Assembly (NCBI GenBank): GCA_016185845.1
Contig: JACPMV010000002.1
Location: forward strand, 1,564-65,563
From: Candidatus Woesearchaeota archaeon
Lineage (GTDB): Archaea; Nanobdellota; Nanobdellia; Woesearchaeales; GW2011-AR4
Direction: 5' to 3'
DNA length: 64,000 bases
The stretch's first letter is position 1. The number at the start of each line of letters is the position of its first letter. The translations under genes and the position numbers were made by a program. Positions 6,181 to 64,000 of the stretch are shown in pieces. The notes under the pieces are model-generated. The model was not told where the DNA came from. It made no database searches and saw nothing but the letters and a program-made list of their open reading frames with translations.

Positions 6181-6266
6181 CTTTGATTTTTTTCAAGCCT
6201 CTCTGAGCCGCATCATAAGCTTTATAAATGATTTTCCTCCCTAAAATACAATATAAAAGGCGAATC

Positions 6267-9146: not shown

Positions 9147-9147
9147 A

Positions 9148-10343: not shown

Positions 10344-10376
10344 GTTTAAATATACTAATATCTCCTCTTTTTTAAC

Positions 10377-13417: not shown

Positions 13418-14248
13418 TTATTTGCCGCCAAATAAGGCCTTATAGTGCTGCTCCGCTGCCCTGCCCTTGTAATGCACGAGAAAAGACACAACTTGCTTTA
13501 AAATAGCGCCAACAGCATAAATTAACAAGTACCAGTAGAATAATATATAGCTTGGCATAAAGTTATAATGCAGGTTTATCAATTCTATAATTGAAATAAC
13601 AGTTAAATGAAGTATATTGGTCGGAGCAGCCCAAAAATCTTTGAATTTATTATAAATATCATTCAGTTTTTTTCCGGTGTCGCTGCCCTGCAAATTAACG
13701 CTCTTCCTGCCTACATTTTTAATATGCCTGCTTTTTATGCGATCCAGGGCAGCATCGCCATGCAGCTTGCTGTTGACTACGGCAGACAGCATGCTGGGAA
13801 TCACGACAGATTTAGAGAATACCGAGCATAAAAATCCAAAAATAAGCACAGATTTCCACCCGGTTTGCAGGAATACTCCAAAAGCCAGGGGGAAAAACAT
13901 AAGATAAGATACCAGCTCGTGGTATATATTCTCCAAATGCACTCCGGTTAAGCTTGATTTTTTCCTGTACCGCGCTATTTCACCATCCACGCAATCCAGC
14001 AGATTCGTAAATTGGATAATCATTATTCCGGCAAATATGCAGCTTAGCTTGCCAAAAAATAAAAAAATGGAACTGAGGAACACCAGAAAAAACTCAATAA
14101 TAGTCACATGATTTGCCTCTATCTTTGTATGCAAGAGGAGCCAAGTAACGTAGATAGAAAGCTTGCTTACATACTTGTTAAACCAAACCCTATATGCATA
14201 TGGGCTGTCATAGCATATTATCCGCAATTGCTTTATAGATTCAACCAT
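13418..14248 (-). CDS. CDP-alcohol phosphatidyltransferase family membrane protein.
   Basis: Multi-TM protein with DCVDGEIARYRKKSSLTGVHLENIYHE, a variant of the D-G-x2-A-R-x8-G-x3-D-x3-D motif with acidic residues E/E in place of the last two Asp. Confidence 0.5.
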   Translation of the reverse strand: MVESIKQLRIICYDSPYAYRVWFNKYVSKLSIYVTWLLLHTKIEANHVTIIEFFLVFLSSIFLFFGKLSCIFAGIMIIQFTNLLDCVDGEIARYRKKSSLTGVHLENIYHELVSYLMFFPLAFGVFLQTGWKSVLIFGFLCSVFSKSVVIPSMLSAVVNSKLHGDAALDRIKSRHIKNVGRKSVNLQGSDTGKKLNDIYNKFKDFWAAPTNILHLTVISIIELINLHYNFMPSYILFYWYLLIYAVGAILKQVVSFLVHYKGRAAEQHYKALFGGK

Positions 14249-14305
14249 TTTTTAAGGTTATGATATTCCCTATAAATATTTATCATTTTCCAGCAACCCA
14301 GTTTC

Positions 14306-24817: not shown

Positions 24818-25869
24818 CTTCTTTTTCTTAGCTCCTCTACTTTTTTATCAATACTTTTAATATTTGTGAGCACTGGCAAGAAATCAATGCCCCTTATCCA
24901 AACAAGTCCTAGCTTAAGTGGGTTAAGCTTATTTGTAATCTTGGGCAGTTTCTCATTGTACGCCAATTTGACAAAAATATACGGCATATTCAATCCAGCT
25001 CTAGTGAAGAATTCATGTGTTGTGAAGAATCTGCCTATATTTATCTCAGTTGGATTTGGCACCCTGTTTCTGTCATAAGTCAAGTCCACACTAAAAATTC
25101 CATGCGGTCTTTTGTCAATTGCAAAAATAGCTTTTTGCGCTATATCATCCAAAATAGGGTCAGAATGCGTAACAGCCCCTCCAGTTGCCCCTGTGATTCC
25201 TGAAGGGGAAATTTTTGACAATTCCCAGTACAACCTTAACCTGCCTTGGGCAACTATCAATTCACCTTTGTTCCATATAGATTGCCATGTGACAGAGTCT
25301 GGACTAAGATATTCTGAAGCCGTGTATTTACCCCATCCTTGCATAAAGTCTATCCATGCCTTTGCCACATCAAAATTGTCAGATTTTAGAGAGCCTCTGC
25401 CACCTGCTCCAGTAGTATCTCTTATCCAAATCGTTTTGAATTTTTTGAGAGCATCTTTAAGATCTTTCTCGTCATTTATTTTCACTGTTTCAGGAACTTT
25501 TAATCCGGCTTTGCTCCATTTTTTATAAGATTCATGCTTATTCTGGCATATTTGAATTGTCTTGTGCTCCGGCAAGAAAAGCTTGGCATTCAGCATTTTT
25601 CTGTTTTTACTGACCTGAAACATTTCAGCATCATTTTGACAATGAAAGAATTCCGCACCAGTCTCGTCTATGATGCTATTTAGAATTTTGATATAATCCT
25701 TTTCGTTAGCGCTAGGTACAAGATAACTATCATCCGTCTCGGACCTATGAATATAATATTTATTGGAGTCTGTGCCTATCAAATAAAATTTTTCAGGGGC
25801 GTGCCTTAACGAGCGCACAAAATTTGTAGCTGGCGTCCCTCCAGCGCCTAAAATAAGAATTCGTTTCAT
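24814..25869 (-). CDS. ATP-grasp family enzyme (carboxylate-amine ligase-like).
   Basis: MKRILILGAGGTPATNFVRSL...LIGTDS has an N-terminal pre-ATP-grasp Rossmann-like domain. About 350 aa, as in sugar-modifying ATP-grasp ligases. Confidence 0.5.
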   Translation of the reverse strand: MKRILILGAGGTPATNFVRSLRHAPEKFYLIGTDSNKYYIHRSETDDSYLVPSANEKDYIKILNSIIDETGAEFFHCQNDAEMFQVSKNRKMLNAKLFLPEHKTIQICQNKHESYKKWSKAGLKVPETVKINDEKDLKDALKKFKTIWIRDTTGAGGRGSLKSDNFDVAKAWIDFMQGWGKYTASEYLSPDSVTWQSIWNKGELIVAQGRLRLYWELSKISPSGITGATGGAVTHSDPILDDIAQKAIFAIDKRPHGIFSVDLTYDRNRVPNPTEINIGRFFTTHEFFTRAGLNMPYIFVKLAYNEKLPKITNKLNPLKLGLVWIRGIDFLPVLTNIKSIDKKVEELRKRR

Positions 25870-38659: not shown

Positions 38660-41335
38660 TTAAGCTTGGCCGCGGCCGTACTTCAATAAAGCAACAAAAA
38701 ACAGCGAGCATGCAATAACGGCAATCAATGAGACAACACCGAATAGCTTCTCTTTTAAAACTATATCATACTTTAATGTTATGACATTCCCTTTTATCGT
38801 TCTTACCATTATCATGTTGAAATTAGTCGGATATAATGGAACTTCCCTATTGTTCATGGATGCCTTCCATCTTGGAAAAAACTCTTCCTTGAAGACAGCA
38901 AATTCATTGTCATTAAATTCCCCGTATATCTCTACAAGCTGCGGGTTTTTTCTGCTGAAAGTCAATGGTATAGGCTCCGCCGGCACTTTATCCTGGGCAT
39001 AATCCAAGGCCTTCTTTGGATTGGCAAAATCATACCTTTCAAGCGGACTTACTGTCACATATTTATAACCCTCTTTTGCCTTGTAAACATCCTTATCGAC
39101 ATTCTTCAATACACTCACTTTTTCAGCGTAATTAGTGCCGTTCACCATAAGAAATACCATGCACTGATTTTGGTATAAAGGTGTTGTGTGATTTGGATAC
39201 ATTTTGAATAGGACAGCATTACCGACAGGATGGCATATATTAAGGAACAGGTATTTGTAGCCGCCAAGCCTGAGGTAATTGCTCATCTCAGTGCCCGATA
39301 TCGTATAAATTCCCGGGAACTCTCCGAATGAATGGCTTGTGTGCAGCATGTCATAGATGTTGTTGAGCTCAGACCACAGATTATACTGATATCTTGTGAA
39401 GTAATGCCCGGTATTGTAAGCCATTCCGGGATCAACTGCATTGGAAAAAAGCCCGTATGTAATGAATCTCCCGTCATTTGGCAGGCTTCTTACAAAATCC
39501 ATTTCGCCTTTTAAAGTTCCCTCAGAGATTATCTGCTCCGCGTGTATATTATCGAGATTTATCCTTGAGTAATAAACATTATGAAGCAGGAAGCCTGCAA
39601 ATACTGCAATCAGTATTGTGCGCGCTTCTTTAGACTTGAAAGAATCAAAGGATGCGGCTATGGATGCGGAGAGCACTACAACTGTATAGGGAAGTATTAT
39701 CCTGTAGCCGGTCTCCAAAGTCCCCATATTGAAAGTAGCTGTTATGAAGTAATATAGGATAAACTGCACTATGAATGTGACTGCAAACAATCCTGCTTTT
39801 CTTAGTTTTTCGCTCTTTAGATTGAATATCACATAAAAAAAAGCAATGCTTCCTATTACCGACAGGAAAAATCCGGATTCTTTGGTATCCAGCCGATTAA
39901 GATCAGGATATTTTATCGAGAACGGAACAATGCCCGGATTTGTGAAATAATCCCTCGTATAAGGAAAAAAATTCTTTAATACCGGCGCTTTGTTGAAGAG
40001 CCCCCTTGGATGCTCCCTTATATAATCATCGTAACTGGCACCTACAAGAGTGTAAGCGAACGCAACTCCAAGAAATATTATGGCTACAAGCGCAACTTTC
40101 CATTTATTCTTCAGCATGTAATTAATTCCATCCCGCATTGATTGCCTGTCTCCGACATATACTACCAGCAAAAGGGAGAATGCGAATACCCACACCCCAA
40201 TGGCCTGTATTACGTGCACCATATACGTCATTACAAGCAGATAGCCCATAATGAACCATTCTGCTGCCTTTTTTGGCTTGGAAAGTATCATTGCAAAAAG
40301 AAGAAGATTTATCGGATGCGCAGAGAATGACTTCAGGCTTTCAAGTATCCTGACAAACTGGAAGCTCAGGCCTATTGCAAGGCTGCCCAGAATTATGAAA
40401 TAAACAGAGTGCCTGCTGCTGTTGCTTCCATTTATTGCAAGCACCTCTTTAAGGAAGACAGCGGCTCCAAGAACCACCATCCAAAGTATAAACATGCTAT
40501 GGGAGTTATAGATAAGCAGCGCATCAAACCATTGCTTTAGAAGAATAGTGGATACTACCAAGATATCCTTTGTGAAATGCAAAGGAGAATCAGTTAGGAA
40601 AAGCTGCTCGCCCATCCCTATGCCCGGGTCGTATTGCGGGAAGAAGCCAAATTTTTCTATATTATTTATAATAAAAGCCTGTTTTGTGTAAATTTCAGTT
40701 GCATTTGAAGTATGCAGGCTGCTGCTGTTGTAAATGACGCTCATGACAAAGAACATCAGGAACAAGGTTCCAAGCAAAATTTTGTAGTCTTCATTGCTCA
40801 TTGAAAAAACGCCTTTAACGGCATCTTTTCCATTCTTCCTTACAAAAACATAATAGGCTATTGACAGAAAAACAGCAATAACGGCAATTATGAAATATGC
40901 GCTAATTTTGATCCCAAGCACATTCGGGTAGTAAACGACAAGCCTGACAACATGAGTTACTGCAAATCCAAGCACGTAGCTTTTGATAAAAGTAGGGTTT
41001 TCCAGAACTGTGCCGAACACAAGGAAAGGGATATAGAAAATGAAAAAAACAAAAAATGGGGGGAATGGCAAGGTTGCTATTGAAATATAAATTAGGTTTT
41101 TTATGCCCGGTTCAAGCTTAGACCCAAATATGACAACCAAGACAGCTATGGACAGGGGAATATAAAGGAAACTCTTGAGTACAAGAGACAACAGGATTAA
41201 ATAGGCTACTATAAGCAAGTCGTTCAGTTTTATCTTCATGCTACCCCGGCTAATGAAATAATTAACTATATTTAAAGGATTTGGTTGATTATCGGAGCTA
41301 TGTTTATGAAATTTATGGTACGTAAAATTCTTCAA
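38660..41335 (-). CDS. Large polytopic membrane protein with C-terminal soluble domain (GT-C-like, YfhO-like candidate).
   Basis: 891 aa: about 560 aa with more than 12 TM followed by about 330 aa of soluble domain. No WWDYG (STT3/AglB) motif was found. Confidence 0.4.
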   Translation of the reverse strand: MKNFTYHKFHKHSSDNQPNPLNIVNYFISRGSMKIKLNDLLIVAYLILLSLVLKSFLYIPLSIAVLVVIFGSKLEPGIKNLIYISIATLPFPPFFVFFIFYIPFLVFGTVLENPTFIKSYVLGFAVTHVVRLVVYYPNVLGIKISAYFIIAVIAVFLSIAYYVFVRKNGKDAVKGVFSMSNEDYKILLGTLFLMFFVMSVIYNSSSLHTSNATEIYTKQAFIINNIEKFGFFPQYDPGIGMGEQLFLTDSPLHFTKDILVVSTILLKQWFDALLIYNSHSMFILWMVVLGAAVFLKEVLAINGSNSSRHSVYFIILGSLAIGLSFQFVRILESLKSFSAHPINLLLFAMILSKPKKAAEWFIMGYLLVMTYMVHVIQAIGVWVFAFSLLLVVYVGDRQSMRDGINYMLKNKWKVALVAIIFLGVAFAYTLVGASYDDYIREHPRGLFNKAPVLKNFFPYTRDYFTNPGIVPFSIKYPDLNRLDTKESGFFLSVIGSIAFFYVIFNLKSEKLRKAGLFAVTFIVQFILYYFITATFNMGTLETGYRIILPYTVVVLSASIAASFDSFKSKEARTILIAVFAGFLLHNVYYSRINLDNIHAEQIISEGTLKGEMDFVRSLPNDGRFITYGLFSNAVDPGMAYNTGHYFTRYQYNLWSELNNIYDMLHTSHSFGEFPGIYTISGTEMSNYLRLGGYKYLFLNICHPVGNAVLFKMYPNHTTPLYQNQCMVFLMVNGTNYAEKVSVLKNVDKDVYKAKEGYKYVTVSPLERYDFANPKKALDYAQDKVPAEPIPLTFSRKNPQLVEIYGEFNDNEFAVFKEEFFPRWKASMNNREVPLYPTNFNMIMVRTIKGNVITLKYDIVLKEKLFGVVSLIAVIACSLFFVALLKYGRGQA
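41316..41331 (+). repeat. Left copy of a 16-nt imperfect direct repeat TGGTACGTAAARTTCT flanking the DUF4258/DUF2283 gene pair.
   Basis: TGGTACGTAAAATTCT at 41316-41331. The partner TGGTACGTAAAGTTCT is at 42268-42283 (15/16 identical). Confidence 0.5.
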
Positions 41336-47432: not shown

Positions 47433-48176
47433 TTACTTCTTATTTTTCCCGTTTCTGTTTTCCAAATTCCTCATCATTATTGATGCCCTTAATAATGAGT
47501 CAAAGCTTCCGGCATCTGACCAGAATTTCCTTATTTTGTTGTAATAAAGCTGCCCTTTCTTTACATACGCGTCCAGGGCGTCTGTTACCTCTATTTCATT
47601 TCTCCATGAAGGCTTTAGCTTGCGTATTATGCCAAATACCTTGGAATCAAACATGTAAAGCCCGGTCATAGCAAGGTTAGATTTTGGCTTTTTGGGCTTT
47701 TCCTCGACATAAGTTACCTTGCCGTCGTTGACAAGCGCTATCCCGAATTTTTTTGCATCTTCCATGCTTACTTCCTTCAGGAATATCCTAGCGCCTTCCT
47801 TCTGCTTTTCAAACTCTTTTACATAAGGAGCTATGTCTTCCTCGAATATATTGTCGCCAAGTATGACAACGCATTTGTCATCACCCACAAAATCCTTTGC
47901 CAGTCCAAGAGCCTGGCCTATTCCGCCGGCTTCTTCCTGTATCTCATAGGTGAAAGTGGCATCAAAGTTTTTTCCTGACTTCAGCAATTTAAGAAAGTGA
48001 CCTGCATGATCTGGTCCGGATATTATCAATATATTTTTTATTCCGGCCTTCAGCAGGGTATGCAGAGGGCAGTAAATCATCGGTTTCGAATAAACCGGGA
48101 GCAAATGTTTATTTGTAACAAGGGTTAATGGATTTAATCTAGTTCCTGTTCCACCAGCAAGAATAATTCCTTTCAT
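47433..48176 (-). CDS. rmlA: Sugar-phosphate nucleotidyltransferase, short-form glucose-1-phosphate thymidylyltransferase-like.
   Basis: MKGIILAGGTGTRLNPLTLVTNKHLLPVYSKPMIY is the RmlA/NTP_transferase N-terminus. Operon context with rmlB and rmlC. Confidence 0.75.
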   Translation of the reverse strand: MKGIILAGGTGTRLNPLTLVTNKHLLPVYSKPMIYCPLHTLLKAGIKNILIISGPDHAGHFLKLLKSGKNFDATFTYEIQEEAGGIGQALGLAKDFVGDDKCVVILGDNIFEEDIAPYVKEFEKQKEGARIFLKEVSMEDAKKFGIALVNDGKVTYVEEKPKKPKSNLAMTGLYMFDSKVFGIIRKLKPSWRNEIEVTDALDAYVKKGQLYYNKIRKFWSDAGSFDSLLRASIMMRNLENRNGKNKK

Positions 48177-49081
48177 TTTTCTAATATCTCCTTAATATCA
48201 AGATATTTTTTATATTTCCTATCAAGATGTAATATACTATCACGATATAGCCAATCAAATATTCTTAATGCCTGCCTATTTCCCCTATATCTTAATGCCC
48301 AATGGTTTTCGTTTTTAATATTTTGTGTTAATTTAACCATGTTCAAGTTTAAATATTTTATTAAAAAATACTGTATATCCAACAATATTTCTTTTGTGCC
48401 AACTATTTGAAACAATAAAGAATTCTTTTTATAGATGATGCTACCATCTCCCTCAAAAAATCCTTTAATGAATGATCTAACAATTTCTTCATTATCGGAA
48501 ACCTTAATTATTTCGGGAAAAAGCTCCTTTTTTGTTTTGCTTTCAGTAACGCCTAAATTCTCTAGTCTCCTTACAAGATATTTGCTAGATATTTTTAATA
48601 ATGATTGTTCATAGTATTTGTTTGTTCTCTTTAAGAAATCCTTATTTATAAAAATCTTTCCAGTATATCCAAGTAAATTCTTAATTTTTGTTAGAACTTC
48701 TATATCCTTCCTACTTAGCTTTAAGCCGAAAGAATGAGAATTTTTGGTTTTATTTATAAATCCATCACTTAATATCCACCCAAGTACCCAAGCATTATTT
48801 TGGTTAATATCATCAAAGAAATTCATATTAACTTCGTATTTTCTTGCATCTAATTTATATGTTTTATCCCTAATTGGTATCTTGTATTTGCGTAATCTTT
48901 GGCTTATGACCCATTGTGAGACTCCAAGGCTCTTTGCAATCTGATCTTGGGATTTCTTTCTTAGAATATATTCTTCAACCAAAAATTTCTTTGATATATC
49001 ATAACTATTCTTAATTCTCTCAGTGAAATTATCGCTGTTATTTATGTTTCTAAAATTTCCGTAAATGTTTTCAACTTTCAT
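48173..49081 (-). CDS. Free-standing double-motif LAGLIDADG homing-endonuclease-like protein with N-terminal HTH.
   Basis: Two LAGLIDADG motifs (VLGWILSDGF and IKGFFEGDGSI) plus HTH SQDQIAKSLGVSQWVISQRLRKY. ATGA overlap with the downstream rmlA-like gene. Confidence 0.6.
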   Translation of the reverse strand: MKVENIYGNFRNINNSDNFTERIKNSYDISKKFLVEEYILRKKSQDQIAKSLGVSQWVISQRLRKYKIPIRDKTYKLDARKYEVNMNFFDDINQNNAWVLGWILSDGFINKTKNSHSFGLKLSRKDIEVLTKIKNLLGYTGKIFINKDFLKRTNKYYEQSLLKISSKYLVRRLENLGVTESKTKKELFPEIIKVSDNEEIVRSFIKGFFEGDGSIIYKKNSLLFQIVGTKEILLDIQYFLIKYLNLNMVKLTQNIKNENHWALRYRGNRQALRIFDWLYRDSILHLDRKYKKYLDIKEILEK

Positions 49082-53874: not shown

Positions 53875-53903
53875 TATTGGTTTCCTACTGTTTCCTAATC
53901 AAA

Positions 53904-55271
53904 ATGAATGCAATACTGCTGGTTGTAGATTCTTTACGGGCGGACCACCTTGGAATATCTGGCTATAAAAGAGATACAAGCCCGAATATAGACCGGCTTG
54001 CAAGAGACGGAGTTTTCTTTTCATCAGCTATTCCGACTTCGCCAAGAACCAGCCCTTCGGTAGGCTCACTTCTTACCGGGCTTTATCCCCATTCCCACGG
54101 GCTGAGGCTGGAGGGGAAAAATAAAGCCAGATTTGAATCTATCAATGTTGTAGACAGGCTAAATAAAAATGCAGTTACAATACAGGAAATCCTAAAATCT
54201 CACGGATACGCTACAATAGGAAATGACATAGAAATGGACAATACCGGGATTGAAAAAGGCTTTGACGAATTCAATTTATTAAAGTGGCGCGTTGCCAACA
54301 AGATAAAAAGGACAATAAAAAAAGCCGTCAAATGGAATTATAATATAGACCCTGCAGAGACTTTAACTGATTTTGCAATAAATCAAATCAAGAAATTAAA
54401 AGACAGGAAATTTTTCTTATACCTCCATTATGTCGGGCTGCATTGGCCTTATACTCCGCCAGAGCCTTATGATGAAATGTTTGACACCGATTATAGAGGA
54501 AACCACACCTTTAATGAAGTCAATGGCAAGATAAACAGGGGAGACCTGATATTTAACAATAGCCTGCCAAAGGAAGAGATTAAACATGCCATAGCCCACT
54601 ATGACGGAGCAATAAGATTTGTAGACGGGCAGATAGGCAGGCTAATCAGCCATCTGGACAGCCTTGGCCTACGCGAAAATACATTGATTGTACTGACTGC
54701 AGACCATGGAGAATGCTTTGGAGAGCATGGGCTTTGCTTCAATCATGGCGAGTACCTCTATGAAGAAGCTGCCAGAGTTCCGCTTATCTTTTTGTATCAC
54801 AAATCTCCTAAGAAAAAGATAGACACCCAGGTGCAATCAACAGATATTATGCCAACAATTCTAGACATTCTTGATATTGAATTAATCGAGAATATAGAAG
54901 GCGCCAGCCTTATGACCTTAGTTAAAGATAATGACAAAGTCAGAGAATATACTTTCGCCGAAAGCGGCATGTCGTTCTTCAAGGAAGACAAGAGGCGCTA
55001 TATGGGAGGAATAAAGGGAAAATGGCGCATGATAAGAACAGACGAATGGAAGCTAATCTATATCCCTCATCCCCAAAAGGACATATTTGAGCTTTACAAC
55101 CTGAAAGATGACCCAATGGAAACAATAAATCTGTTTGAAAAAAATGCCGAGATAGCCAATAAGCTCAGGGAAGAATTGTTTAAATGGATGAAAGACTCTG
55201 ACTCAAGCGAAGACATGGACTTGACTGAAAAATCAAAGAAACTGCTAAAAAAGCTCGGGTATATCGACTAA
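53904..55271 (+). CDS. Sulfatase-fold (alkaline phosphatase superfamily) protein with Thr in place of the FGly cysteine; LtaS/EptA-type phosphotransferase or hydrolase candidate.
   Basis: LLVVDSLRADHLG (metal site), TSPSVGSLLTGLYP aligning to sulfatase CSPSRASLLTGRYP with Cys replaced by Thr and Arg by Val, and LTADHGE (DHG motif). The start was moved to the internal Met of MNAILLVVDSL. Confidence 0.65.
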   Translation: MNAILLVVDSLRADHLGISGYKRDTSPNIDRLARDGVFFSSAIPTSPRTSPSVGSLLTGLYPHSHGLRLEGKNKARFESINVVDRLNKNAVTIQEILKSHGYATIGNDIEMDNTGIEKGFDEFNLLKWRVANKIKRTIKKAVKWNYNIDPAETLTDFAINQIKKLKDRKFFLYLHYVGLHWPYTPPEPYDEMFDTDYRGNHTFNEVNGKINRGDLIFNNSLPKEEIKHAIAHYDGAIRFVDGQIGRLISHLDSLGLRENTLIVLTADHGECFGEHGLCFNHGEYLYEEAARVPLIFLYHKSPKKKIDTQVQSTDIMPTILDILDIELIENIEGASLMTLVKDNDKVREYTFAESGMSFFKEDKRRYMGGIKGKWRMIRTDEWKLIYIPHPQKDIFELYNLKDDPMETINLFEKNAEIANKLREELFKWMKDSDSSEDMDLTEKSKKLLKKLGYID

Positions 55272-55296: not shown

Positions 55297-56469
55297 TTGC
55301 CTTTTGTTTCTCGCGGCAAGATGGGCATAATCAATTTTTTTCAATCTAAATTCGGTAAAAAGCCAAATATAATCATGATCATGATTGATGGGGCTAGGAG
55401 CGACGTTATTGGATCAGTAAACTACTACAAGCAACTAAAAAAAGATTCTATATTCTGCTCCAAACTGATAACTTATGCCCCTTATACAATAGGCTCTTTG
55501 CATTCGCTGTTTTCCGGAATGTATGGGAACAATAACGGGGTTAATGGTTACTATAAAAGCTACGGCTTTGACGCGAAAAATTGCCTTACTTTGGCGCAAT
55601 ACCTAAAAGAAGCAGGCTACTATACGGAAGCAGATGTTGTTGCAAAAGACATTCTGCCATCTTCAGGCTTTGACAAGATCAGGGTTTACGACGAGTTTAA
55701 GGAAGATTTGACAGAAAGGCACAAGGAGATTTTAAACCAAATCAGTCAAAAAGGGCCTTTCTTCCTGTTTTTGGACTATATAAGCCTCCATACTAACCTG
55801 GTCCATAACGTAATAAAAAAATATTCTGACTTTGACAAGGAATACTTCGACAACAGGAAAAATAATTTAAAGAATTATCTTCAAGAGGTAGAGAAAAGCG
55901 CGAACTACCTTGACAGTTTACTGAAGAAGATAAGTGAGATGGGTTTATTGGACAACACACTCGTTATAATTTTTTCAGACCATGGCACAAGCGTTGGCGA
56001 CAGGCCGGGGGAAAAGGCTTACGGAGTCTACCTTTATGATTATACCATAAGGTGCTTTCTTTACATCATCAGCAAAGATCTGCCCAAAGGCCTTGAAATA
56101 AACGAGCTTGTGAGAAGCATAGACATATTGCCGACCATGCTTGAAATATTAAAAATAAATGAAAAAAAAAGCCATAATAAAATCCAAGGCAAATCATTTT
56201 TGCCGTTAATTAACGGCAAGACGGAAGAAAGGATAGCTTATTCCGAAACAGGCGGCCTTGGAGGCCCGACACCATCTCCAGAAAAACACAACGTATTTGC
56301 TGTGCGCACAAACAAATGGAAGCTGATTTATAATGAGACAAGCAAGAAAAAAGAATTATACGACTTGGAAAATGACGAGGGGGAAATAAACAATCTTGCA
56401 GGCAAAAAACCCGATATTGAGAGATTCCTGTGGGAAGAGATGAAGAACCACTCAGAACCTAAGAAATAA
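55297..56469 (+). CDS. Sulfatase-fold (alkaline phosphatase superfamily) protein, second copy, also with Thr at the nucleophile position.
   Basis: IMIMIDGARSDV, YTIGSLHSLFSGMYG (Thr at the FGly position) and IFSDHGTSVGD. Confidence 0.55.
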   Translation: MPFVSRGKMGIINFFQSKFGKKPNIIMIMIDGARSDVIGSVNYYKQLKKDSIFCSKLITYAPYTIGSLHSLFSGMYGNNNGVNGYYKSYGFDAKNCLTLAQYLKEAGYYTEADVVAKDILPSSGFDKIRVYDEFKEDLTERHKEILNQISQKGPFFLFLDYISLHTNLVHNVIKKYSDFDKEYFDNRKNNLKNYLQEVEKSANYLDSLLKKISEMGLLDNTLVIIFSDHGTSVGDRPGEKAYGVYLYDYTIRCFLYIISKDLPKGLEINELVRSIDILPTMLEILKINEKKSHNKIQGKSFLPLINGKTEERIAYSETGGLGGPTPSPEKHNVFAVRTNKWKLIYNETSKKKELYDLENDEGEINNLAGKKPDIERFLWEEMKNHSEPKK

Positions 56470-56479
56470 TTAAACAGAT

Positions 56480-56833
56480 TTATTCCTGTACATACTCAGC
56501 TCCGGTTGCAAGGCAAATTTCAGCTTTCTTCAGCTCTTTTCCCAGATATGCGGCGTGCTCCAATCTTGTCAGCCAGCGCTTGTTATTTTTTTGGCTATAA
56601 TCAAAAATCGACGTATACAAATCCTGCGCTCTTTTCCCCACGAATTCCTTAAGGATTGTATGGGTGTAATCGCAGATCGCAACCCCTATCTCGAGAGTGT
56701 CCGGATAAATTCTTATCAAAACATAGCATCCTTTATCAATCCTGAAATCCTTATTTGTGTACTTTTTGGCTTTGATTACCTCAAAACTTTTTGAGTATTT
56801 CTGCTTCTTAACCCATTTTGGCATTTCTGTCAT
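56480..56833 (-). CDS. Hypothetical protein.
   Basis: 117-aa ORF with coding-like composition. No recognisable family. Confidence 0.3.
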   Translation of the reverse strand: MTEMPKWVKKQKYSKSFEVIKAKKYTNKDFRIDKGCYVLIRIYPDTLEIGVAICDYTHTILKEFVGKRAQDLYTSIFDYSQKNNKRWLTRLEHAAYLGKELKKAEICLATGAEYVQE

Positions 56834-56917
56834 GCATTAAAGGAAGATTATTCCCGATTTAAAACTATTGGTAAAAACATCAAAAAGGCGAACCGAAACC
56901 TTTAAATACTATTACTA

Positions 56918-57478
56918 GTGACACTAGTAGCTATGAAAAAAGTAGTATGGCTAAATAAATCTAACGGGCAATTATGCGTTACAATACCTAAAGACTCCGG
57001 AGTAAATGAAGGGGAAATTGTGAATGTGGAAAAAGAGAAGGTCAAGTCCATAGTTTATTCTTCGGTAACCGGCGACCTTTTCCATTATGGGCACCTTCGG
57101 CTGCTGCAAAGAGCCAATGAACTTGGAGATTTTCATATATGCGGCGTACTGACAGATGAGGCCATAAAATCCTATAAGCGGGATCCTATAGCGGGATTCA
57201 AGGAAAGAAAATCCATCATATCCTCGCTTTTGTGCGTTGATATGGTAATGCCGCAGCACAGCCTTGATCCGACGGACAATCTTAAGAAAATACATGAGCA
57301 GTTTGAGAATGCCAAGCTGGTTCTTGTCCTTGGCTCCAACTGGAAAAAAGTGCCTGGATCGGAGTATATCAATAAAATAAAAGGGGAGATAGTGCAGCCG
57401 CCATTTTATGAAAAATTATCCACTGACAACATTATAAATAAAATCTTTAAAACTTATGGAAGAGGCAGACAAAAATGA
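56918..57478 (+). CDS. HxGH cytidylyltransferase (TagD/glycerol-3-phosphate cytidylyltransferase-like) with a possible N-terminal AbrB/SpoVT-like swapped-hairpin domain.
   Basis: [15 protein letters not shown] (HxGH) and LTDEAI. N-terminal about 45 aa, [24 protein letters not shown], resembles AbrB/MazE-type domains. Confidence 0.6.
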
Positions 57479-58773
57479 AAAAAGTATATGTAGGGATGAG
57501 CACCGATGTCCTGCACCATGGGCATATAAATATAATATCGGCTGCAAGAAAGCTTGGGGAAGTTACAGTTGGGTTGCTTACTGACGAAGCAATTGCGAGC
57601 TTCAAGAGGGTGCCTTTGCTTTCATACGGGCAGAGAAAAAAAATAATAGAGAACATAAAAGGAGTCAAGGAAGTAATTCCGCAGGAAACCCTTGATTATG
57701 CCCCAAATTTAATTAAGCTAAAGCCCGATTATGTAGTGCACGGAACTGACTGGAAAACTGGAGTTCAAAAACATATAAGGTATAGGGTAATAAAAACACT
57801 AAAGGGGTGGAACGGCAAGCTCATAGAGCCAGAATATACAAAAGGGATATCCTCAACACAGCTTATAAACGAGATGCTGGAAATAGGCACAACTTCTGAG
57901 ATAAGGCTGAAAAAGCTGAGGAAACTGCTGGAGCTAAAGCCTTTAGTCAGGCTTATGGAGGTCCACAATGGCCTGACAGGAAGAATAGTGGAAAAAGCAA
58001 AGATAGTGCAGGGAAATTCTATAAGGGAGTTTGACGGAATGTGGGAAAGCAGCCTGACAGATTCCATTTCCAAAGGCAAGCCGGACATTGAGTATGTGGA
58101 TATAACCTCAAGGCTGCATACAATCGACCAGATATTTGACGTCACAACAAAGCCAATGGTAGTTGATGCCAATAACGGGGGAGTTCCTGAACATTTTGTA
58201 TATACTGTAAAGACACTTGAAAGGGTCGGAGTCTCCGCTGTCATAATAGAAGACAAGACCGGGCTTAAAAAAAATTCCCTTTTTGGGACTGACGCCAATC
58301 AAATGCAGGATTCAATAGAGAATTTCTGCAAAAAGATTTCCGCAGGAAAGAAAGCTCAGGTAACTGAGGATTTCATGATTATTGCGAGAATAGAGAGCCT
58401 TATACTGAAAAATGGAATGGAGGATGCAATTAAAAGGGCAAAAGCGTACATAGAATCCGGTGTTGACGGGATCATGATACACAGCAAGGAAAAAAGCCCG
58501 AAAGAAATCCTGGAATTCTGCAGGCGATACAGGGGTTTTGACAAAAAAGTTCCGCTAGTAGCTGTCCCGACAACATACAATGAAATAACTGAAGAGGAGC
58601 TGATAAAAGCCGGAGTGAATATTGTGATATACGCAAATCATCTGCTAAGAAGCGCGTACCCAAGCATGGTCAGGGCTGCAGAGCTTATACTGAAAAACCA
58701 CAGGGCGCAGGAAGCAGACAAGCTGTGCATGCCGATAAAGGAAATACTTGAATTGATTCCCGGAGCAAAATGA
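57475..58773 (+). CDS. pepM: Phosphoenolpyruvate phosphomutase with fused N-terminal cytidylyltransferase domain (Fom1-like architecture).
   Basis: N-terminus: [18 protein letters not shown] (HxGH CyTase). C-terminal about 290 aa in the ICL/PEP-mutase family with the PepM-specific [13 protein letters not shown] (EDK-x5-NS) motif. ATGA overlap with the upstream gene. Confidence 0.8.
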
Positions 58774-59888
58774 TAAGCTGCAAGAAATTTTATGACTGCC
58801 TGCTGGAAAATGAAATTGATTTTTTTAGCGGAGTTCCTGATTCTTTATTGAAGGACTTTTGCGCTTACGTGACTGACAATGCAGAAGGCAAGAAAAATAT
58901 AATAGCTGCAAATGAGGGAAATGCAATTGCAATAGCTTCAGGATACCATCTTTCTACGGGAAAATTTGGATTGGTTTATATGCAGAATTCCGGATTGGGC
59001 AATACAATAAACCCTTTGACATCGCTTGCCGACAAAGAGGTTTATTCAATCCCGATGCTCCTATTGATTGGATGGCGGGCAGAGCCTGGTATTAAGGATG
59101 AGCCGCAGCATATCAAGATGGGAAAAGTCACTCTTGGATTGCTTGAAACCATTGGAATTAAATATGAAATATTGAATGACAATTTTGAGGAAATCATTGA
59201 AAAAGCCAAAAGCCATATGGAAAATGAAAAATCTCCCTTTGCGATTGTTGCAAGGAAAGGGGCTTTTGAGGAATACAAGCTTAAAACTAAAAAAGAAACA
59301 AATTACGAGCTTAATAGGGAAGACGCAATAAGGCTTATAGTGCCTTTGCTTGACAAAGATGATATAATAATCTCAACAACAGGAATGACTTCAAGGGAGC
59401 TTTTTGAGCTGAGGGAGGCAAACAAGGAAGGGCATGAAAAGGATTTTCTTACAGTAGGATGCATGGGGCATTCTTCTTCCATTGCTTTGGGAATTGCCTT
59501 GGAAAAACCAGAAAGGAATGTTTACTGCCTTGACGGAGACGGCGCTTTGATAATGCACATGGGAGCATTGTCCACAATAGCTTCTTTAAATCCTAAGAAC
59601 TTCAAGCACATTGTTTTTAACAACTTTGCACATGACTCTGTTGGCGGGCAGCCGACTGCCGCATACAATATTGATATTCCAGCTATTGCAATGGCAAGCG
59701 GCTATGTTTACGCAGATTCTGCAGAAACCAAAGATGACCTTATCGATAAAATAAATAAAATGAAAAATATTGACGGTCCTGCGCTTCTTGAAATAAAAGT
59801 CAACAAAGGCCACAGGAAAGACCTGGGAAGGCCCACAAGGACGCCGATAGAGAACAAGGAAGATTTTATGGGGTTTTTATCTGGTTAA
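58770..59888 (+). CDS. ppd: Phosphonopyruvate decarboxylase (ThDP-dependent).
   Basis: ThDP-binding motif [33 protein letters not shown] (GDG...NN). About 370 aa, immediately downstream of pepM with overlapping stop/start. Confidence 0.8.
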
Positions 59889-59889
59889 A

Positions 59890-61026
59890 ATGCATCAAAA
59901 AGAATATTTCGGGCTCAATTCAATAATCAATTTAAAGAAAATCCTGTCTAAATACAAACCAAAAAGCATATTTCTAGTCACCGGCAAAAACTCTTACGAA
60001 AAATGCGGCGCAAAGTCAATTCTTGATAAAATCCTTAAGGGCTACAATGTAATTCATTTCTATGATTTTGATGTAAATCCGAAACTTCTTGACATTAAAA
60101 AAGGAATTAAGTTATTCAAGAAAAATAAATGCGATTTTATCATTGCTATCGGAGGCGGCAGCGTGATGGACGTCGCAAAGTCAGTAAACTCATTTGCCGC
60201 AAATGATGGAAAGCCGGAAGATTATCTCCAAAAAGGAAAATCCATAGAAAAAAAAGGCAAAGTTCTTGTTGCTATTCCCACAACAGCAGGCTCAGGAAGC
60301 GAGGCAACAAAGTTTGCAGTTATCTACCTAAACAAGACAAAATATTCTCTGGACAATGAGTTTATAATTCCGGATTATGCAATAATAGATCCCCAGTTTA
60401 TAATGAACCTGCAGAAAAGCATAACATCTTCCGCAGGAATGGATGCACTGTCGCAGGGAATTGAGTCATACTGGTCCGTACATTCCACCAATCAATCCAA
60501 AAAGTATTCTAGAGGTGCAATCAAGCTTGCCATAAGAAATCTTGCCAAAGCAGTCAATGGCAATAAATCCAGCAGAATAGCAATGGCTAAAGCAGCGCAT
60601 TTGGCAGGAAAGGCAATTAATATATCAAAAACAACAGCATGCCATGCAATCTCTTATCCCATAACCTCATATTTCAATGTTCCTCACGGGCATGCGGTTG
60701 CTCTGACTATACCCTCAATGCTTAAATACAATCTAGATATCAATGAAAATGATATGATTGACAAGCGCGGAGTAAAATACGTCAAAAAAACAATCAATGA
60801 AATTGTAAAACTATTAGGATATGCCAATGTTAATGATGCAAGCATTAAAATACAAAATTTGATGAAACAAATCGGATTATCAACAAAACTCAGCGAATTG
60901 GGAATAAAAACAAATGAAGATATAGAAATAATTATAAAAAACGGGTTTAACCCGGGAAGAGTCAGGAACAATCCAAGGTTATTGACAGAGCAGGCTTTAA
61001 GGAAAATACTGGAGGATATAAGATGA
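59890..61026 (+). CDS. Iron-containing (group III) alcohol dehydrogenase; phosphonoacetaldehyde reductase candidate (2-hydroxyethylphosphonate-forming).
   Basis: AIGGGSVMDVAKSV (GGGSxxD Fe-ADH motif) and metal-binding His residues (CHAISYP...HGHA). Position directly after pepM-ppd. Confidence 0.7.
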   Translation: MHQKEYFGLNSIINLKKILSKYKPKSIFLVTGKNSYEKCGAKSILDKILKGYNVIHFYDFDVNPKLLDIKKGIKLFKKNKCDFIIAIGGGSVMDVAKSVNSFAANDGKPEDYLQKGKSIEKKGKVLVAIPTTAGSGSEATKFAVIYLNKTKYSLDNEFIIPDYAIIDPQFIMNLQKSITSSAGMDALSQGIESYWSVHSTNQSKKYSRGAIKLAIRNLAKAVNGNKSSRIAMAKAAHLAGKAINISKTTACHAISYPITSYFNVPHGHAVALTIPSMLKYNLDINENDMIDKRGVKYVKKTINEIVKLLGYANVNDASIKIQNLMKQIGLSTKLSELGIKTNEDIEIIIKNGFNPGRVRNNPRLLTEQALRKILEDIR

Positions 61027-61778
61027 AAGCGATAATACTTGCGGCAGGCGTTGGCAGCAGGCTGGGTGATGTGACTAAAACAACTCCAAAATGCCTGATA
61101 AAGATAGGCAGCAAAGTAATTGCAGAGCATCAAATAGAGGCATTAACTTCCAATAATCTAACAGATATCAGCATGGTAATAGGGCACCAGGCAGAAAAGG
61201 TAAAAGACGCACTGAAAGATAAAAATGTTAAGTTTTACACCAATAAAGACTATGACAAGACAGGCATGCTGGAAAGCCTGTTCTGCGCGGAAAAAGAATT
61301 AAATGGTGATGTCATCATGCTGTATGGGGATATTGTGTTCAAAGAGAACCTGATAAGGAAACTGCTGAAAGACAAAAATGACATTTGCCTGGTTGTGGAT
61401 AGGTATAAAGAAATAGCCCACGAATCCGAGAAAGCTTTTGAAGAATACCATGGTCAAAAACTGGAAAAAGGAAGCACTAAAGTAAACATTGTTGACGGCA
61501 TAGTCAAGAAAATATCAAAAAGCATGCCCAAGGAAGAGGCAAGCGCGGAGTATATAGGAATCACAAAATTCAGCAGGAAGATTGTGGAAATAGTTCATAA
61601 TAGGATCAAAGAACTCATAGATAACGGAGAAATAAAAGCATACCCGACACCATCGCGTCTGTTCAAGTGGCTTATAGAGAACGGGCACGAAATGCATGTT
61701 ACCTATACGGACGGGATTCTGTACGAAGAAATTGATTACGCTGATGACCTGGAAAGCGCCAAAGAAAAATTTGTATAA
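61023..61778 (+). CDS. LicC/PntC-like nucleotidyltransferase (phospho-alcohol or phosphonate cytidylyltransferase candidate).
   Basis: MKAIILAAGVGSRLGDVTKTTPKCL is the NTP_transferase motif. Paralogous to the gene at 10377. ATGA overlap with the ADH gene. Confidence 0.7.
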   Translation: MKAIILAAGVGSRLGDVTKTTPKCLIKIGSKVIAEHQIEALTSNNLTDISMVIGHQAEKVKDALKDKNVKFYTNKDYDKTGMLESLFCAEKELNGDVIMLYGDIVFKENLIRKLLKDKNDICLVVDRYKEIAHESEKAFEEYHGQKLEKGSTKVNIVDGIVKKISKSMPKEEASAEYIGITKFSRKIVEIVHNRIKELIDNGEIKAYPTPSRLFKWLIENGHEMHVTYTDGILYEEIDYADDLESAKEKFV

Positions 61779-61779
61779 A

Positions 61780-62433
61780 CTAATATTTCTTTACTAAGCC
61801 GATAATTTCTGAAATATCTTTAATGTAATGGTCTCCTTTAGCGCTCTTTTCTATGCAGGCGGATTTTATACCTGCGAGCTTTGCGCCTCTCATTTCGTAT
61901 TCTTTGTGCCCTACAAAAATGGCTTCAAAAGATTTTACATTTAATTTTTTAAGCATTGCTTCGTAGGATTCCTTCCGGTCTTTTGTATATCCGGTTACGC
62001 TTGAGCACACTATGACATCAACAAACTGCGCCAAGCCTATTTTTTTAAACCATTCCCATTTTTTCTCTTCTGTAGTTGCAGTGTCAGTCAGAATTCCTAT
62101 TTTTATGCCCAGCGACTTTATTTTCTCAAATGTGCTATGGGCATTTTCCTTAATCTTTATATTTGAAAAATTCTGCCTGAAAACAGCGGCAAACTCATTA
62201 AAAAAATTGCCGTCAAATTCTATTTTAAGGTATTCCAGGGTTTTTTTGAGATGCTCATCTTTTGAAATATCATTCTTGTAGAGTTGCAGGGCATATTCGT
62301 CATAGGCCTTGATAAACTGCTTTGCAGATACTTTATGGCCCCTTTCCATGAGAAAATCAAGTATTAGTTTTAATGTTTCATCGTCCCTGTAATATACCAA
62401 GTCCCCGGCATCAAATATTACTGCCTTAATCAT
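61780..62433 (-). CDS. HAD-superfamily hydrolase (phosphatase).
   Basis: MIKAVIFDAGDLVY is HAD motif I. The start was moved to the internal Met (cat at 62431-62433). Confidence 0.6.
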   Translation of the reverse strand: MIKAVIFDAGDLVYYRDDETLKLILDFLMERGHKVSAKQFIKAYDEYALQLYKNDISKDEHLKKTLEYLKIEFDGNFFNEFAAVFRQNFSNIKIKENAHSTFEKIKSLGIKIGILTDTATTEEKKWEWFKKIGLAQFVDVIVCSSVTGYTKDRKESYEAMLKKLNVKSFEAIFVGHKEYEMRGAKLAGIKSACIEKSAKGDHYIKDISEIIGLVKKY

Positions 62434-62466
62434 GCACCAGTTTTGCAATAACATATATAAATACGT

Positions 62467-63546
62467 TTGGTTTCAATGCCCTATCCGAAAATGATTGAGC
62501 TAAGAAATGACAGGCAAAGGTCAGAATACATAAAGAACTTATTAAAAGAATTCTTTCCCGGAACAGCAGCCTTTACTGACAAGTTTATAGACGTAGGCGC
62601 TATGAATTATGTTTATGAGGCAGAAGCCGGTGGGCATGTCATCTATCTGAAGCAAGCCCTGGACGATGCAAAAAACAAGGAAAAAATAGGCAAGGATTTG
62701 GCAGGCATACCGAAAAACAGGATAGGCTACGAGGATAAATATATAGAGACAATCAGCAAATTCCTGCCAAAAGAGATCGAATTGCCTAAAATCCTCAAGT
62801 ACGATAAAGAAAATAATATACTAATCATTTCTGATGTAAAGAAAGGAGGGACACTTCTTGAGGAATCGCTTCTCAATGGAAATTTCAACGCTAAAACAGC
62901 ATATAATCTTGGCAAGTTCCTTGGACTGTCGCATAAAAACACAATCGGCAGAAACATAACAATAAGGGGCTCTGAGGAAAACGATGTTGATAACTGGGAA
63001 ATTTTCCTGAAGATGAGGACAACAGGAATACTGCAAAAAGAAAAATTTTCAGATGATGTTGTAAAAAATGTCAATGATGTTTATGAGGATGTAAAATATA
63101 ATTACATCAATAATGTTGTCATAAACATGGACTGCTGCCCTAAAAACGTGTTTGAAAGGAAAAATGGCTCTATCGGATTAGTGGATTTCGAGCTGGCTTC
63201 CGGCATCGGTGATCCGGCTTATGACCTAGGATTTTTAATCGGGCATTACCTTATAATGCTTGCCATCAGAACTGATAAGGTTGAAGAGGCAATATCTTCA
63301 ATACAGAGCATCCTGAAAGGATACAGAGAAGAAATGAACTTCTTAAATGATAAGAATGACAATGAGAGGCTTGTAAAATACAGCGGCATGATCATGATAT
63401 ATCGGGTTGCGGGCTCAAGCCCGGCGCCTTACATTAAAGCTGATAAAATGCCTTTAATAAAAGAAATTGGGATTCAGCTTATAACACGAAATTTCCACAA
63501 TTTTGATGAAGTATTCTACTATATCAGAAAACGATTAAAAAATTAG
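62467..63546 (+). CDS. Aminoglycoside-phosphotransferase/choline-kinase-family small-molecule kinase (LicA-like).
   Basis: Brenner-like catalytic region DCCPKNVFERKNGSIGLVDFELAS (H/DxDxxxxN ... D-F-E). N-terminal nucleotide-binding lobe. About 360 aa. Confidence 0.55.
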   Translation: MVSMPYPKMIELRNDRQRSEYIKNLLKEFFPGTAAFTDKFIDVGAMNYVYEAEAGGHVIYLKQALDDAKNKEKIGKDLAGIPKNRIGYEDKYIETISKFLPKEIELPKILKYDKENNILIISDVKKGGTLLEESLLNGNFNAKTAYNLGKFLGLSHKNTIGRNITIRGSEENDVDNWEIFLKMRTTGILQKEKFSDDVVKNVNDVYEDVKYNYINNVVINMDCCPKNVFERKNGSIGLVDFELASGIGDPAYDLGFLIGHYLIMLAIRTDKVEEAISSIQSILKGYREEMNFLNDKNDNERLVKYSGMIMIYRVAGSSPAPYIKADKMPLIKEIGIQLITRNFHNFDEVFYYIRKRLKN

Positions 63547-63559
63547 CCGCTTATTTAAT

Positions 63560-64000
63560 TTATTTTACTATCCTCTTATACAATCCCTTCAATTCTTCCA
63601 AATCTATTATTTTTAATATGAACAGCAAAGCAACGTATACTAACGATGATATCAACAATACTATAGCTGTTTCAATCCACACATTTAATTCAATTATTTT
63701 TTTCAAACCCCATATAGTAAAAGTAAAAATAATTCCAGCAAGAAAAGTCTTTGCCCATACTGCTTTCGGGAAAGAGATATCAATAAACCTTCTCATGTTT
63801 GCAAGCCCCATTGACATCATAATCAGATAGCTTAAGGTTGTCGATATAGCGGCGCCGATTATTCCTATGTAGGGTATTAAGATTATGCTTGCTATGAAAT
63901 TAAATATTGCCGCAGTATAAACTATTTTAGTAGTTATCTGGGGCTCCCTTATACCTCCAAAGAAATCTATATTTGTCGCATATATAACTGCAAATATCAT
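63560..64000 (-). CDS. Wzx/MATE-like flippase, C-terminal portion. The gene continues beyond the window end (5' partial).
   Basis: Highly hydrophobic C-terminal segment with several TM helices, resembling the C-terminus of polysaccharide-biosynthesis (PST) family proteins. The ORF is open to the window edge. Confidence 0.45.
   Translation of the reverse strand: MIFAVIYATNIDFFGGIREPQITTKIVYTAAIFNFIASIILIPYIGIIGAAISTTLSYLIMMSMGLANMRRFIDISFPKAVWAKTFLAGIIFTFTIWGLKKIIELNVWIETAIVLLISSLVYVALLFILKIIDLEELKGLYKRIVK

Follow-up and report, generated by a model that had tools for sequence, protein, structure and literature searches.

The window analyzed here, a stretch of 64,000 nucleotides from Candidatus Woesearchaeota archaeon (assembly GCA_016185845.1, contig JACPMV010000002.1), probably carries a functional and horizontally mobile phosphonate-tailoring cassette in a variable slot of the surface-glycan island of this DPANN archaeon, a tiny organism of the symbiotic type. 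Its products would form a pathway to the donor cytidine 5'-monophosphate-2-hydroxyethylphosphonate (CMP-HEP; HEP for the free phosphonate) and serve glycan decoration. The cassette (window positions 56933-63546) encodes a stand-alone cytidylyltransferase (CyT), a fusion of a cytidylyltransferase domain (CyTase) with phosphoenolpyruvate (PEP) mutase (PepM), phosphonopyruvate decarboxylase (Ppd), an iron-type alcohol dehydrogenase (Fe-ADH), a nucleotidyltransferase (NT), a HAD-like protein and a kinase, and a partial Wzx flippase gene comes after the kinase gene at its end. All seven open reading frames (ORFs) that a first-pass annotation of the bare sequence had placed here are present at those positions. 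The core of that interpretation is supported by the present analysis with some details corrected; its assignments for the kinase, the HAD-like protein, the NT and the additional CyTase are predicted functions. The genes are arranged as follows.

56933-57478, plus strand: stand-alone cytidylyltransferase-fold protein of 181 amino acids (aa) with FHYGH motif (PF01467, E=9.6e-10).
57475-58773, plus strand: bifunctional Fom1-type protein of 432 residues (PF01467 and PEP_mutase).
57475-57882, plus strand: CyTase domain of this fusion, approximately residues 1-136.
Approximately residues 146-432 of the fusion, plus strand: PEP mutase domain.
58770-59888, plus strand: phosphonopyruvate decarboxylase, a thiamine diphosphate (ThDP) enzyme (TIGR03297).
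59890-61026, plus strand: group III (Fe/Zn) alcohol dehydrogenase (ADH; PF00465, E=5.8e-43; PF25137, ADH_Fe_C, E=2.6e-33).
61023-61778, plus strand: LicC/PntC-type nucleotidyltransferase of sub-family NT-A (PF12804, NTP_transf_3, E=2.1e-17).
61780-62433, minus strand: HAD-superfamily protein with non-canonical motifs (ORF to 62454, conserved start MIKAV).
62491-63546, plus strand: small-molecule kinase of the 5-methylthioribose (MTR) kinase/APH fold (ORF from 62467, conserved start MIELRN).
63560-64000, minus strand: C-terminal part of a Wzx-type flippase, cut by the window end.

Families were assigned to the ORFs with Pfam and with curated NCBI equivalog profiles (TIGR cut-offs). Related loci (numbered with L in the following) were collected by scanning one genome per species, which gave 80 loci with a homologue of the fusion protein; the full set comprised 107 loci with 1.55 Mb in total. 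Stop/start overlaps of the ATGA type couple CyT to PepM, PepM to Ppd and ADH to NT, as had been described for this region.

The fusion protein matches PF01467 at residues 11-132 (E=4e-15) and PEP_mutase (PF13714) at residues 148-405 (E=3.9e-56). It was annotated as a PEP mutase, and the equivalog profiles agree and set it apart from the methylisocitrate lyases: TIGR02320 for PEP mutase gives 405 bits against a cut-off of 319.55, and the scores of the sister families are 158.5 (Pphn_pyruv_hyd), 96.4 (prpB, cut-off 354) and 45 bits (CPEP_Pphonmut). The EDK-x5-NS motif reported for this family was found at residues 259-268, with E, D, K, N and S invariant in 81 of 81 homologues. An alignment with 1m1b, the PEP mutase of Mytilus, and with 5unc shows that D58, D85, E114, K120, N122, S123, R159 and H190 have identical counterparts here, and these are invariant in all 81 homologues. 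The active and Mg2+-site positions, which we take to be these eight together with D87, are conserved in eight of nine cases, the exception being the Mg-site residue D87, which corresponds to Asn233. In the N-terminal part the HHGH motif lies at residues 14-17 (H14 and H17 invariant in 81/81 homologues, G16 in 80/81), and this domain is 61% identical (81 of 133 residues) to the Fom1 CyTase in PDB entry 5x3d (E=1.9e-51), so that the proposed Fom1-like architecture is confirmed. The fused CyTase is most likely a CTP:HEP cytidylyltransferase (CTP, cytidine 5'-triphosphate), as judged from these family relations, and homologues of the fusion carry the JGI name PEP phosphomutase / 2-hydroxyethylphosphonate cytidylyltransferase. 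At NCBI a woesearchaeotal protein (P0001) agrees with the fusion in all 432 residues (100% identity).

The next gene product reaches 501.1 bits with TIGR03297 (cut-off 312.5), and the profiles of the beta and alpha subunits of sulfopyruvate decarboxylase give only 125 and 90.6 bits, both under their cut-offs, which bears out its naming as Ppd. Because the PepM and Ppd equivalogs both win over their sister families, neither of the two family assignments that would have spoken against a phosphonate cassette, a methylisocitrate-lyase-like protein or a sulfopyruvate decarboxylase, applies here. The ThDP motif had been read as GDG-x26-NN; its actual form is GDG-x25-NN, which is placed at Ppd residue 256, keeps to the ThDP-binding pattern GDG-x(24-27)-NN and shows equal spacing in 44 of 75 homologues. 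We infer that the adjacent ADH is a phosphonoacetaldehyde reductase in the role of PhpC or FomC. Its metal-site positions are D185, Q189, H252 and H266, position 189 being Gln in 47 and His in 18 of 65 sequences. The presence of an ADH rather than an aminotransferase of the 2-aminoethylphosphonate (AEP) type had been taken to indicate the HEP route, and the related loci uphold this: Ppd follows PepM in 74 of 80 loci and the Fe-ADH gene directly follows Ppd in 65 of 80, usually not more than 30 nt from the Ppd stop codon. PhpC and FomC, which direct the pathway to 2-HEP, are known from this very place after Ppd (PMC8942020, PMC13576164). The cassette is not accompanied by an aminotransferase of the AEP type; the four DegT-family aminotransferases of the window, judged by their position, are at least 10 kb away and lie among sugar-nucleotide genes.

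The proposed pathway would begin at the PepM domain with the conversion of PEP to phosphonopyruvate, and Ppd would pull this reaction forward by decarboxylating the product to phosphonoacetaldehyde. The Fe/Zn-type ADH would reduce the aldehyde to HEP, from which the Fom1-type CyTase domain would form CMP-HEP at the expense of CTP. Family membership and conserved synteny support these four predicted steps from PEP to CMP-HEP. A lipid-linked glycan would then receive the phosphonyl head group from CMP-HEP, the adjacent Wzx flippase would export the HEP-decorated glycan, and kinase together with NT-A may contribute another activated component to this decoration. Transcription of the operon would start from a TATA-type promoter with a conserved palindromic operator in the start region.

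The fusion protein is 64-78% identical across the 80 loci, and 93% identical in L006, a truncated contig. On the archaeal side the loci belong to Woesearchaeota, Nanoarchaeota and Promethearchaeum (Asgard), on the bacterial side to Saccharibacteria and other members of the Candidate Phyla Radiation (CPR), Ignavibacteria, Bacteroidota, Syntrophomonadaceae, Aminicenantes, Desulfuromusa, Alteromonas and others. Such identity over DPANN, Asgard, CPR and many bacterial phyla means that the module spreads between domains, and since PepM, Ppd and ADH recur together in both of them, this trio with its Fom1-type CyTase can be regarded as a core that is widespread and mobile across the domains. A gene for a TagF-like CDP-glycerol-type phosphotransferase stands after the ADH gene in loci of Ignavibacteria and Bacteroidota (clusters 10 and 22), which fits CMP-HEP or another CMP-phosphonate as donor. 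Three loci classed as viral in IMG/VR (L105-L107) contain CyTase-PepM relatives of 59-66% identity, and a tblastn search found no clear Ppd beside them. In L103 (4276-7050) a CyTase is fused in frame to an Fe-ADH, with neither PepM nor Ppd and without the GISST motif; this locus is probably a deletion derivative. It shares with L092 (3433-4056) a HIT-family-like ORF of 201-207 aa with an HxHxH motif that precedes the cassette.

The glycan destination of HEP is suggested by the genomic context. Glycosyltransferases, enzymes of sugar-nucleotide metabolism and flippases are abundant in the window, and the cassette lies in a glycan island next to a Wzx flippase, in line with the earlier description of its setting. 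The partial flippase ORF has no Pfam match of its own; it shares 51-64% identity with full-length Polysacc_synt/Wzx proteins that stand at the corresponding end in L001-3, L010, L090, L091 and L095-98. On the other flank, outside the cassette, two genes of the alkaline-phosphatase superfamily ("sulfatases", PF00884) are found.

53877-55271, plus strand: first alkaline-phosphatase-superfamily gene (SulfA).
55297-56469, plus strand: second alkaline-phosphatase-superfamily gene (SulfB).

Both lack the formylglycine motif C/S-x-P-x-R and have T-S-P-S-V (53877-55271) and T-I-G-S-L (55297-56469) without Arg instead. The Thr at the nucleophile position is conserved in both (Ser in one SulfA orthologue), and LtaS and EptA have a Thr nucleophile as well. 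The pair probably represents phosphoester or phosphonoester enzymes rather than sulfatases. A function as phosphonyl transferases was considered and dropped, since L097, L098 and L100 possess the pair by a flippase without any phosphonate genes. In L102 another, NT-containing cassette fills the place between SulfB and flippase. As this slot is hypervariable, being empty or differently filled in relatives, the phosphonate cassette is an exchangeable module. A small PterinBD-DUF4346 protein resembling the MtrA C-terminus is encoded in the gap that separates the PF00884 pair from the cassette (56480-56833, minus strand), and the same gene occupies the equal place in L006 and L092.

The three genes between ADH and flippase require separate consideration. 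The NT was annotated as LicC/PntC-like, and this is corroborated by its best PDB matches, LicC 1jyk (7.6e-14) and PntC-AEPT 6pd1 (1.7e-10), and by the N-terminus MKAIILAAGVGSRLG, which contains the AAGxGSRL motif of the PF12804 fold. NT-A members (49-66% identical) occur with the kinase in five of five cases, while NT-B (approximately 30% identical) sits after the ADH gene in loci without kinase. The kinase was named LicA-like, which is not the most fitting designation: in the fold comparison of its AlphaFold2 (AF2) model (pLDDT 93) it comes nearest to 5-methylthioribose kinases (TMq 0.71-0.81 at only 12-15% identity), PsiK and LxmK, and LicA ranks only 27-28 with TMq 0.52. By sequence it matches TIGR01767 (MTRK, E=4.9e-10), remains below the threshold for APH (21.7 vs 23.2 bits), has no match to PF01633 and finds no usable match in the PDB (best E=0.15). 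Its KQAL, DCCPKN and DFE motifs are conserved, and a woesearchaeotal protein (P0121) is 100% identical over 99% of the query. The strict pairing of NT-A and kinase argues for a phosphate ester, not a phosphonate, as NT-A substrate and suggests a two-step activation; most likely the two enzymes act in sequence, an alcohol or sugar being phosphorylated and then nucleotidylated. It is possible, if doubtful, that NT-A, HAD-like protein and kinase constitute an independent sugar or alcohol activation or salvage module (with AmgK/MurU/MupP or LicA/LicC logic) that shares only the slot. This would agree with a kinase fold nearest to that of 5-methylthioribose kinase, an anomeric sugar kinase, with full-length but weak matches of the NT to the sugar-1-phosphate nucleotidyltransferase AglF and to Arch_glmU, with the hypervariability of the slot and the other NT-containing cassette of L102, and with the occurrence of kinase homologues of not more than 40% identity in unrelated bacterial operons; moreover, unrelated genes separate the trio from the ADH gene in L010/L087, where it is found 2.5 kb farther downstream. 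But all five contexts of kinase homologues with at least 43% identity are PepM clusters, the kinase gene of L085 stands between PepM and an NT-A::Ppd fusion (order PepM-kinase-NT::Ppd-ADH), and an overlap of 4 nt couples the translation of NT-A to that of ADH in the window. Two independent metagenome contigs, L090 and L091, have all seven genes in the order found here, and the HAD-like gene accompanies NT-A and kinase in L087, L090 and L091. By synteny the NT, HAD-like and kinase genes are thus members of the cassette in one sub-lineage. Among the more distant kinase homologues, those of L081, L083, L088 and L089 (35-38% identical) are part of a conserved bacterial operon with BKACE, cupin, cyclase, ABC transporter and AhtL-like molybdopterin oxidoreductases.

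Different fates of HEP or of its activated form were weighed as well. A phosphonolipid, formed by transfer of the head group from CMP-HEP to a lipid alcohol via a CDP-alcohol phosphatidyltransferase, would correspond to a major known class of CDP-OH-type clusters (PMC8942020), and the window does contain a CDP-OH_P_transf gene (13418-14248; archaetidylinositol-phosphate-synthase-like, 49 bits). This gene, however, is 43 kb away from the cassette and about 2 kb from a different, phosphoramidate-like one, and no such gene was seen beside PepM in the related cassettes examined; furthermore, DPANN archaea usually lack lipid synthesis. We consider such a lipid quite improbable. Slightly less credible is a secreted small-molecule phosphonate made from CMP-HEP in a fosfomycin-like manner with radical-SAM methylation instead of a surface decoration. 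The Fom1 architecture itself stems from the fosfomycin pathway (PMC6697681), and genes for B12-binding radical-SAM proteins (Fom3 class) flank the cassette in L001, L013, L043, L085 and L090, but in the window none was detected by tblastn or among Pfam matches of the ORFs, neither an epoxidase nor a FomD-like hydrolase is among the Pfam matches, and the cassette lies within a glycan island ending in a flippase. A Fom3-like step, being confined to relatives, was hence dropped for the window. PhpC-type ADHs serve HEP degradation too (PMC13576164), and the cluster might in principle be catabolic, with oxidation of environmental HEP to phosphonoacetaldehyde for phosphate release. This can be nearly dismissed, as PepM and Ppd are biosynthetic and translationally coupled to and conserved with the ADH; PhnX, PhnA and PhnY are not among the family hits in or next to the cassette, where no search was aimed at them.

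Several observations weigh against a functional decoration cassette delivering CMP-HEP to a glycan. All activities of the cassette and its C-P product are predictions from the genes. Where the window has Asn233, the residue corresponding to D87 is Asp in 79 of 81 locus homologues, and mutase activity could be lowered by this exchange, which is a caveat and not a disproof; the same Asn occurs in L006, P0002, P0003 and a few scattered others, altogether in at least seven natural homologues. The ADH reaches only 191.5 bits with TIGR03405, the only phosphonate-linked Fe-ADH model (cut-off 423.7); strong divergence is reported among enzymes of the PhpC type (PMC13576164). Of the label HAD phosphatase the HAD fold is confirmed (PF13419, HAD_2, E=5.4e-17, and PF00702), but the canonical motifs I (DxDx(T/V)) and IV ((G/S)DxxxD) are replaced by FDA(G/E)D and GHKxYE in all four orthologues, so "phosphatase" is not a secure designation. 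The PF00884 pair is not specific for the cassette. As to the head-group transferase, no TagF-like enzyme was detected in the window when two TagF-like proteins taken from related loci served as tblastn queries, and no TagF-like, LicD-like or other phosphonyl transferase is among the Pfam hits of the larger window ORFs, LicD never having been used as a query. Four ORFs of the glycan island are without Pfam match, namely 38660-41335 (minus strand, 891 aa), 20184-22043 (plus strand, 619 aa), 12077-13369 (plus strand, 430 aa) and 24814-25869 (minus strand, 351 aa), and one of them could be the missing transferase.

The region in front of the cassette contains two short elements that were not part of the gene list.

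56901-56908, plus strand: TATA-like box TTTAAATA, preceded by GAAAC resembling a B recognition element (BRE-like); read from the sequence.
56914-56928, without strand: palindrome ACTAGTGACACTAGT (ACTAGT-N3-ACTAGT) between the TATA-like box and the start codon.

The TATA-like box is the presumed archaeal promoter of the cassette, its distance of approximately 25-30 nt to the ATG pointing to this function; the predicted transcript would be leaderless and start near 56931-56933. The block cGAAAsnTTTAAATA is kept in 13 of 15 aligned upstream regions; farther upstream, and in the intergenic DNA around the promoter/palindrome block in general, conservation is absent. The first gene begins with the conserved ATG at 56933 (MKK...) and not, as initially annotated, with GTG at 56918, a codon that sits within the conserved palindrome. 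Allowing up to one mismatch, ACTAGT-N3-ACTAGT matches the window only once (0.02 matches expected). In 20 loci with stand-alone CyT it is present in exactly one copy per locus, always just upstream of CyT, and it was found in none of the other 84 loci compared. The arm columns of the alignment (A52-T57 and A61-T66) are invariant except for G56 (at least 90%), and the central bases vary. ACTAGT is rare elsewhere (five window copies vs approximately 21 expected), and CTAG as such is about five-fold under-represented in the window (46 copies vs approximately 222 expected from base composition). An RNA hairpin is disfavored (fold z=-1.19): the arms are invariant without compensatory changes and hairpin stability is ordinary, and therefore a DNA operator bound by a protein is the better reading. 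The palindrome appears to be under selection and represents a candidate operator. In the bacterial locus L032 it lies at 9419-9433 between TTGACA and TAAATAT, followed by a G-rich Shine-Dalgarno-like stretch; this promoter looks bacterial, and thus the operator is kept across promoter types. In L092 the palindrome is absent, and the HIT-family-like ORF takes the place of the stand-alone CyT.

The obvious candidate binder of the palindrome would be the stand-alone CyT itself. Its closest PDB entry by sequence as well as by fold is the Fom1 CyTase 5x3d (E=3.1e-17; TMt 0.84), and its family comprises 469 proteins of 72-89% identity, the named members belonging to Woesearchaeota or Nanoarchaeota. 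Among the loci it is limited to DPANN-type and a few CPR ones. Ahead of the CyTase fold all orthologues share an invariant N-terminal extension of approximately 37 residues for which neither Pfam nor the PDB offers a significant match; with the extension as a profile, no PDB entry came below E=0.4, and the AF2 monomer has pLDDT values of 31-62 over residues 1-30. A relation to AbrB/SpoVT-MazE was tried and found unsupported (PF04014 with best E=0.12 in one orthologue, low-confidence AF2 model). We tentatively suggest that this protein, instead of or besides acting as a further enzyme of the pathway, might be a ligand-sensing autoregulator of the cassette. It would bind ACTAGT-N3-ACTAGT, between the TATA box and the transcription start of its own gene, as a dimer via the 37-residue extension and respond to CTP or CMP-HEP held in its nucleotidyltransferase fold. 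This NadR-like design would have been passed along with the cassette among DPANN archaea and CPR bacteria.

Some further features of the window deserve mention. At 6228-11165 a second phosphorus module is found that resembles the O-methyl-phosphoramidate pathway of Campylobacter. It encodes a 972-aa protein (NF004508/PRK05849, 861 bits, cut-off 501) composed of PPDK_N, PEP-utilizer and an extra N-terminal PF01467 CyTase domain. After it come a GATase similar to gamma-glutamyl-CDP-amidate hydrolase (93 bits, under the cut-off) and the genes of an LMWPc-like protein and a PF12804 NT. The CDP-alcohol phosphatidyltransferase mentioned above, whose similarity to archaetidylinositol-phosphate synthase is weak, stands beside a second Wzx-type flippase (13418-15727). 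Two fusions concern sugar metabolism, one of a C-methyltransferase (Methyltransf_13/14) to an epimerase/dehydratase (318-2615, minus strand) and one of an epimerase to a HAD domain (23336-24817, minus strand). A free-standing LAGLIDADG-type, homing-endonuclease-like ORF with a helix-turn-helix (48173-49081, minus strand) has a sugar-1-phosphate nucleotidyltransferase and a dTDP-glucose-dehydratase-like gene as neighbors. No tRNA genes are present in the whole window.

Comparison with known systems places the cassette close to several of them. Like Fom1, Fom2 and FomC of fosfomycin biosynthesis in Streptomyces wedmorensis, it combines a CyTase-PEP mutase with Ppd and a group III ADH for HEP and CMP-HEP formation; Fom1 makes CMP-HEP, and PF01467 is fused to 23.6% of RefSeq Ppm proteins (PMC6697681). 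Unlike the Fom system it lacks Fom3, the epoxidase Fom4, the hydrolase FomD and the kinases FomA/B, and its setting is an archaeal glycan island. With bacterial Pnt clusters (PMC6697681) it shares the PF01467-fused Ppm, a nearby PF12804 NT of the LicC/PntC type and the surface-glycan context, and nucleotidyl activation dominates bacterial phosphonate tailoring in general (PMC6697681). Characterized PntC enzymes, however, act on AEP, and the present cassette adds to the Pnt scheme a paralogous stand-alone CyT that is uniquely extended at its N-terminus, a kinase similar to MTR kinases, a HAD-like protein of atypical motifs, the palindrome and a DPANN host. A PhpC-type ADH in place of the AEP transaminase is typical of the HEP branch, where these enzymes make HEP; this branch accounts for 8.5% of ppm neighborhoods, with two product families known (PMC8942020). 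With the precedents of Ppm-PF01467 fusions and of the HEP branch the pathway is therefore of a known kind. The way from PEP to HEP via PepM, Ppd and ADH is shared also with the methylphosphonate cluster of Nitrosopumilus maritimus and the phosphonoglycans of Glycomyces and Stackebrandtia. No MpnS- or HEPD-type gene is among the family hits of the window, in which no search was aimed at that family, so HEP and not methylphosphonate is the expected head group. Sulfatase-family genes are located near the N. maritimus cluster too. In N. maritimus and the actinomycetes the phosphonate is finally esterified to exopolysaccharide, according to the summaries in PMC8942020 and PMC13576164, and HEP as a constituent of phosphonoglycans is mentioned in PMC13576164 (citing Yu 2014). 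The pairing of an APH/ELK-fold (ELK, eukaryotic-like kinase) enzyme with a LicC-type NT resembles phosphocholine activation by LicA and LicC, although the window kinase is far closer in fold to MtnK than to LicA.

The limited literature searched contained no description of phosphonate genes in Woesearchaeota, and what is new in the DPANN/CPR version is the extended paralogous CyT, the conserved palindrome, the module of kinase, NT-A and HAD-like protein, and the host. Most archaea cannot metabolize reduced phosphorus compounds such as phosphonates, pepM together with ppd having been detected in 30 of 865 genomes (PMC11066067). Phosphonate producers are thus thought to be rare among archaea, and DPANN genomes are small. 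That a complete, conserved and apparently regulated cassette would spend PEP and CTP on a surface phosphonate suggests that the decoration has some value for a life style of cell-cell contact or for resistance to phosphatases, grazers or viruses. Cultured carriers of the core trio, i.e. Promethearchaeum syntrophicum MK-D1, Desulfuromusa kysingii DSM 7343 and Alteromonas sp. BMJM2, make the predicted HEP chemistry directly testable, and the conserved candidate operator may offer a simple handle on the control of such cassettes.

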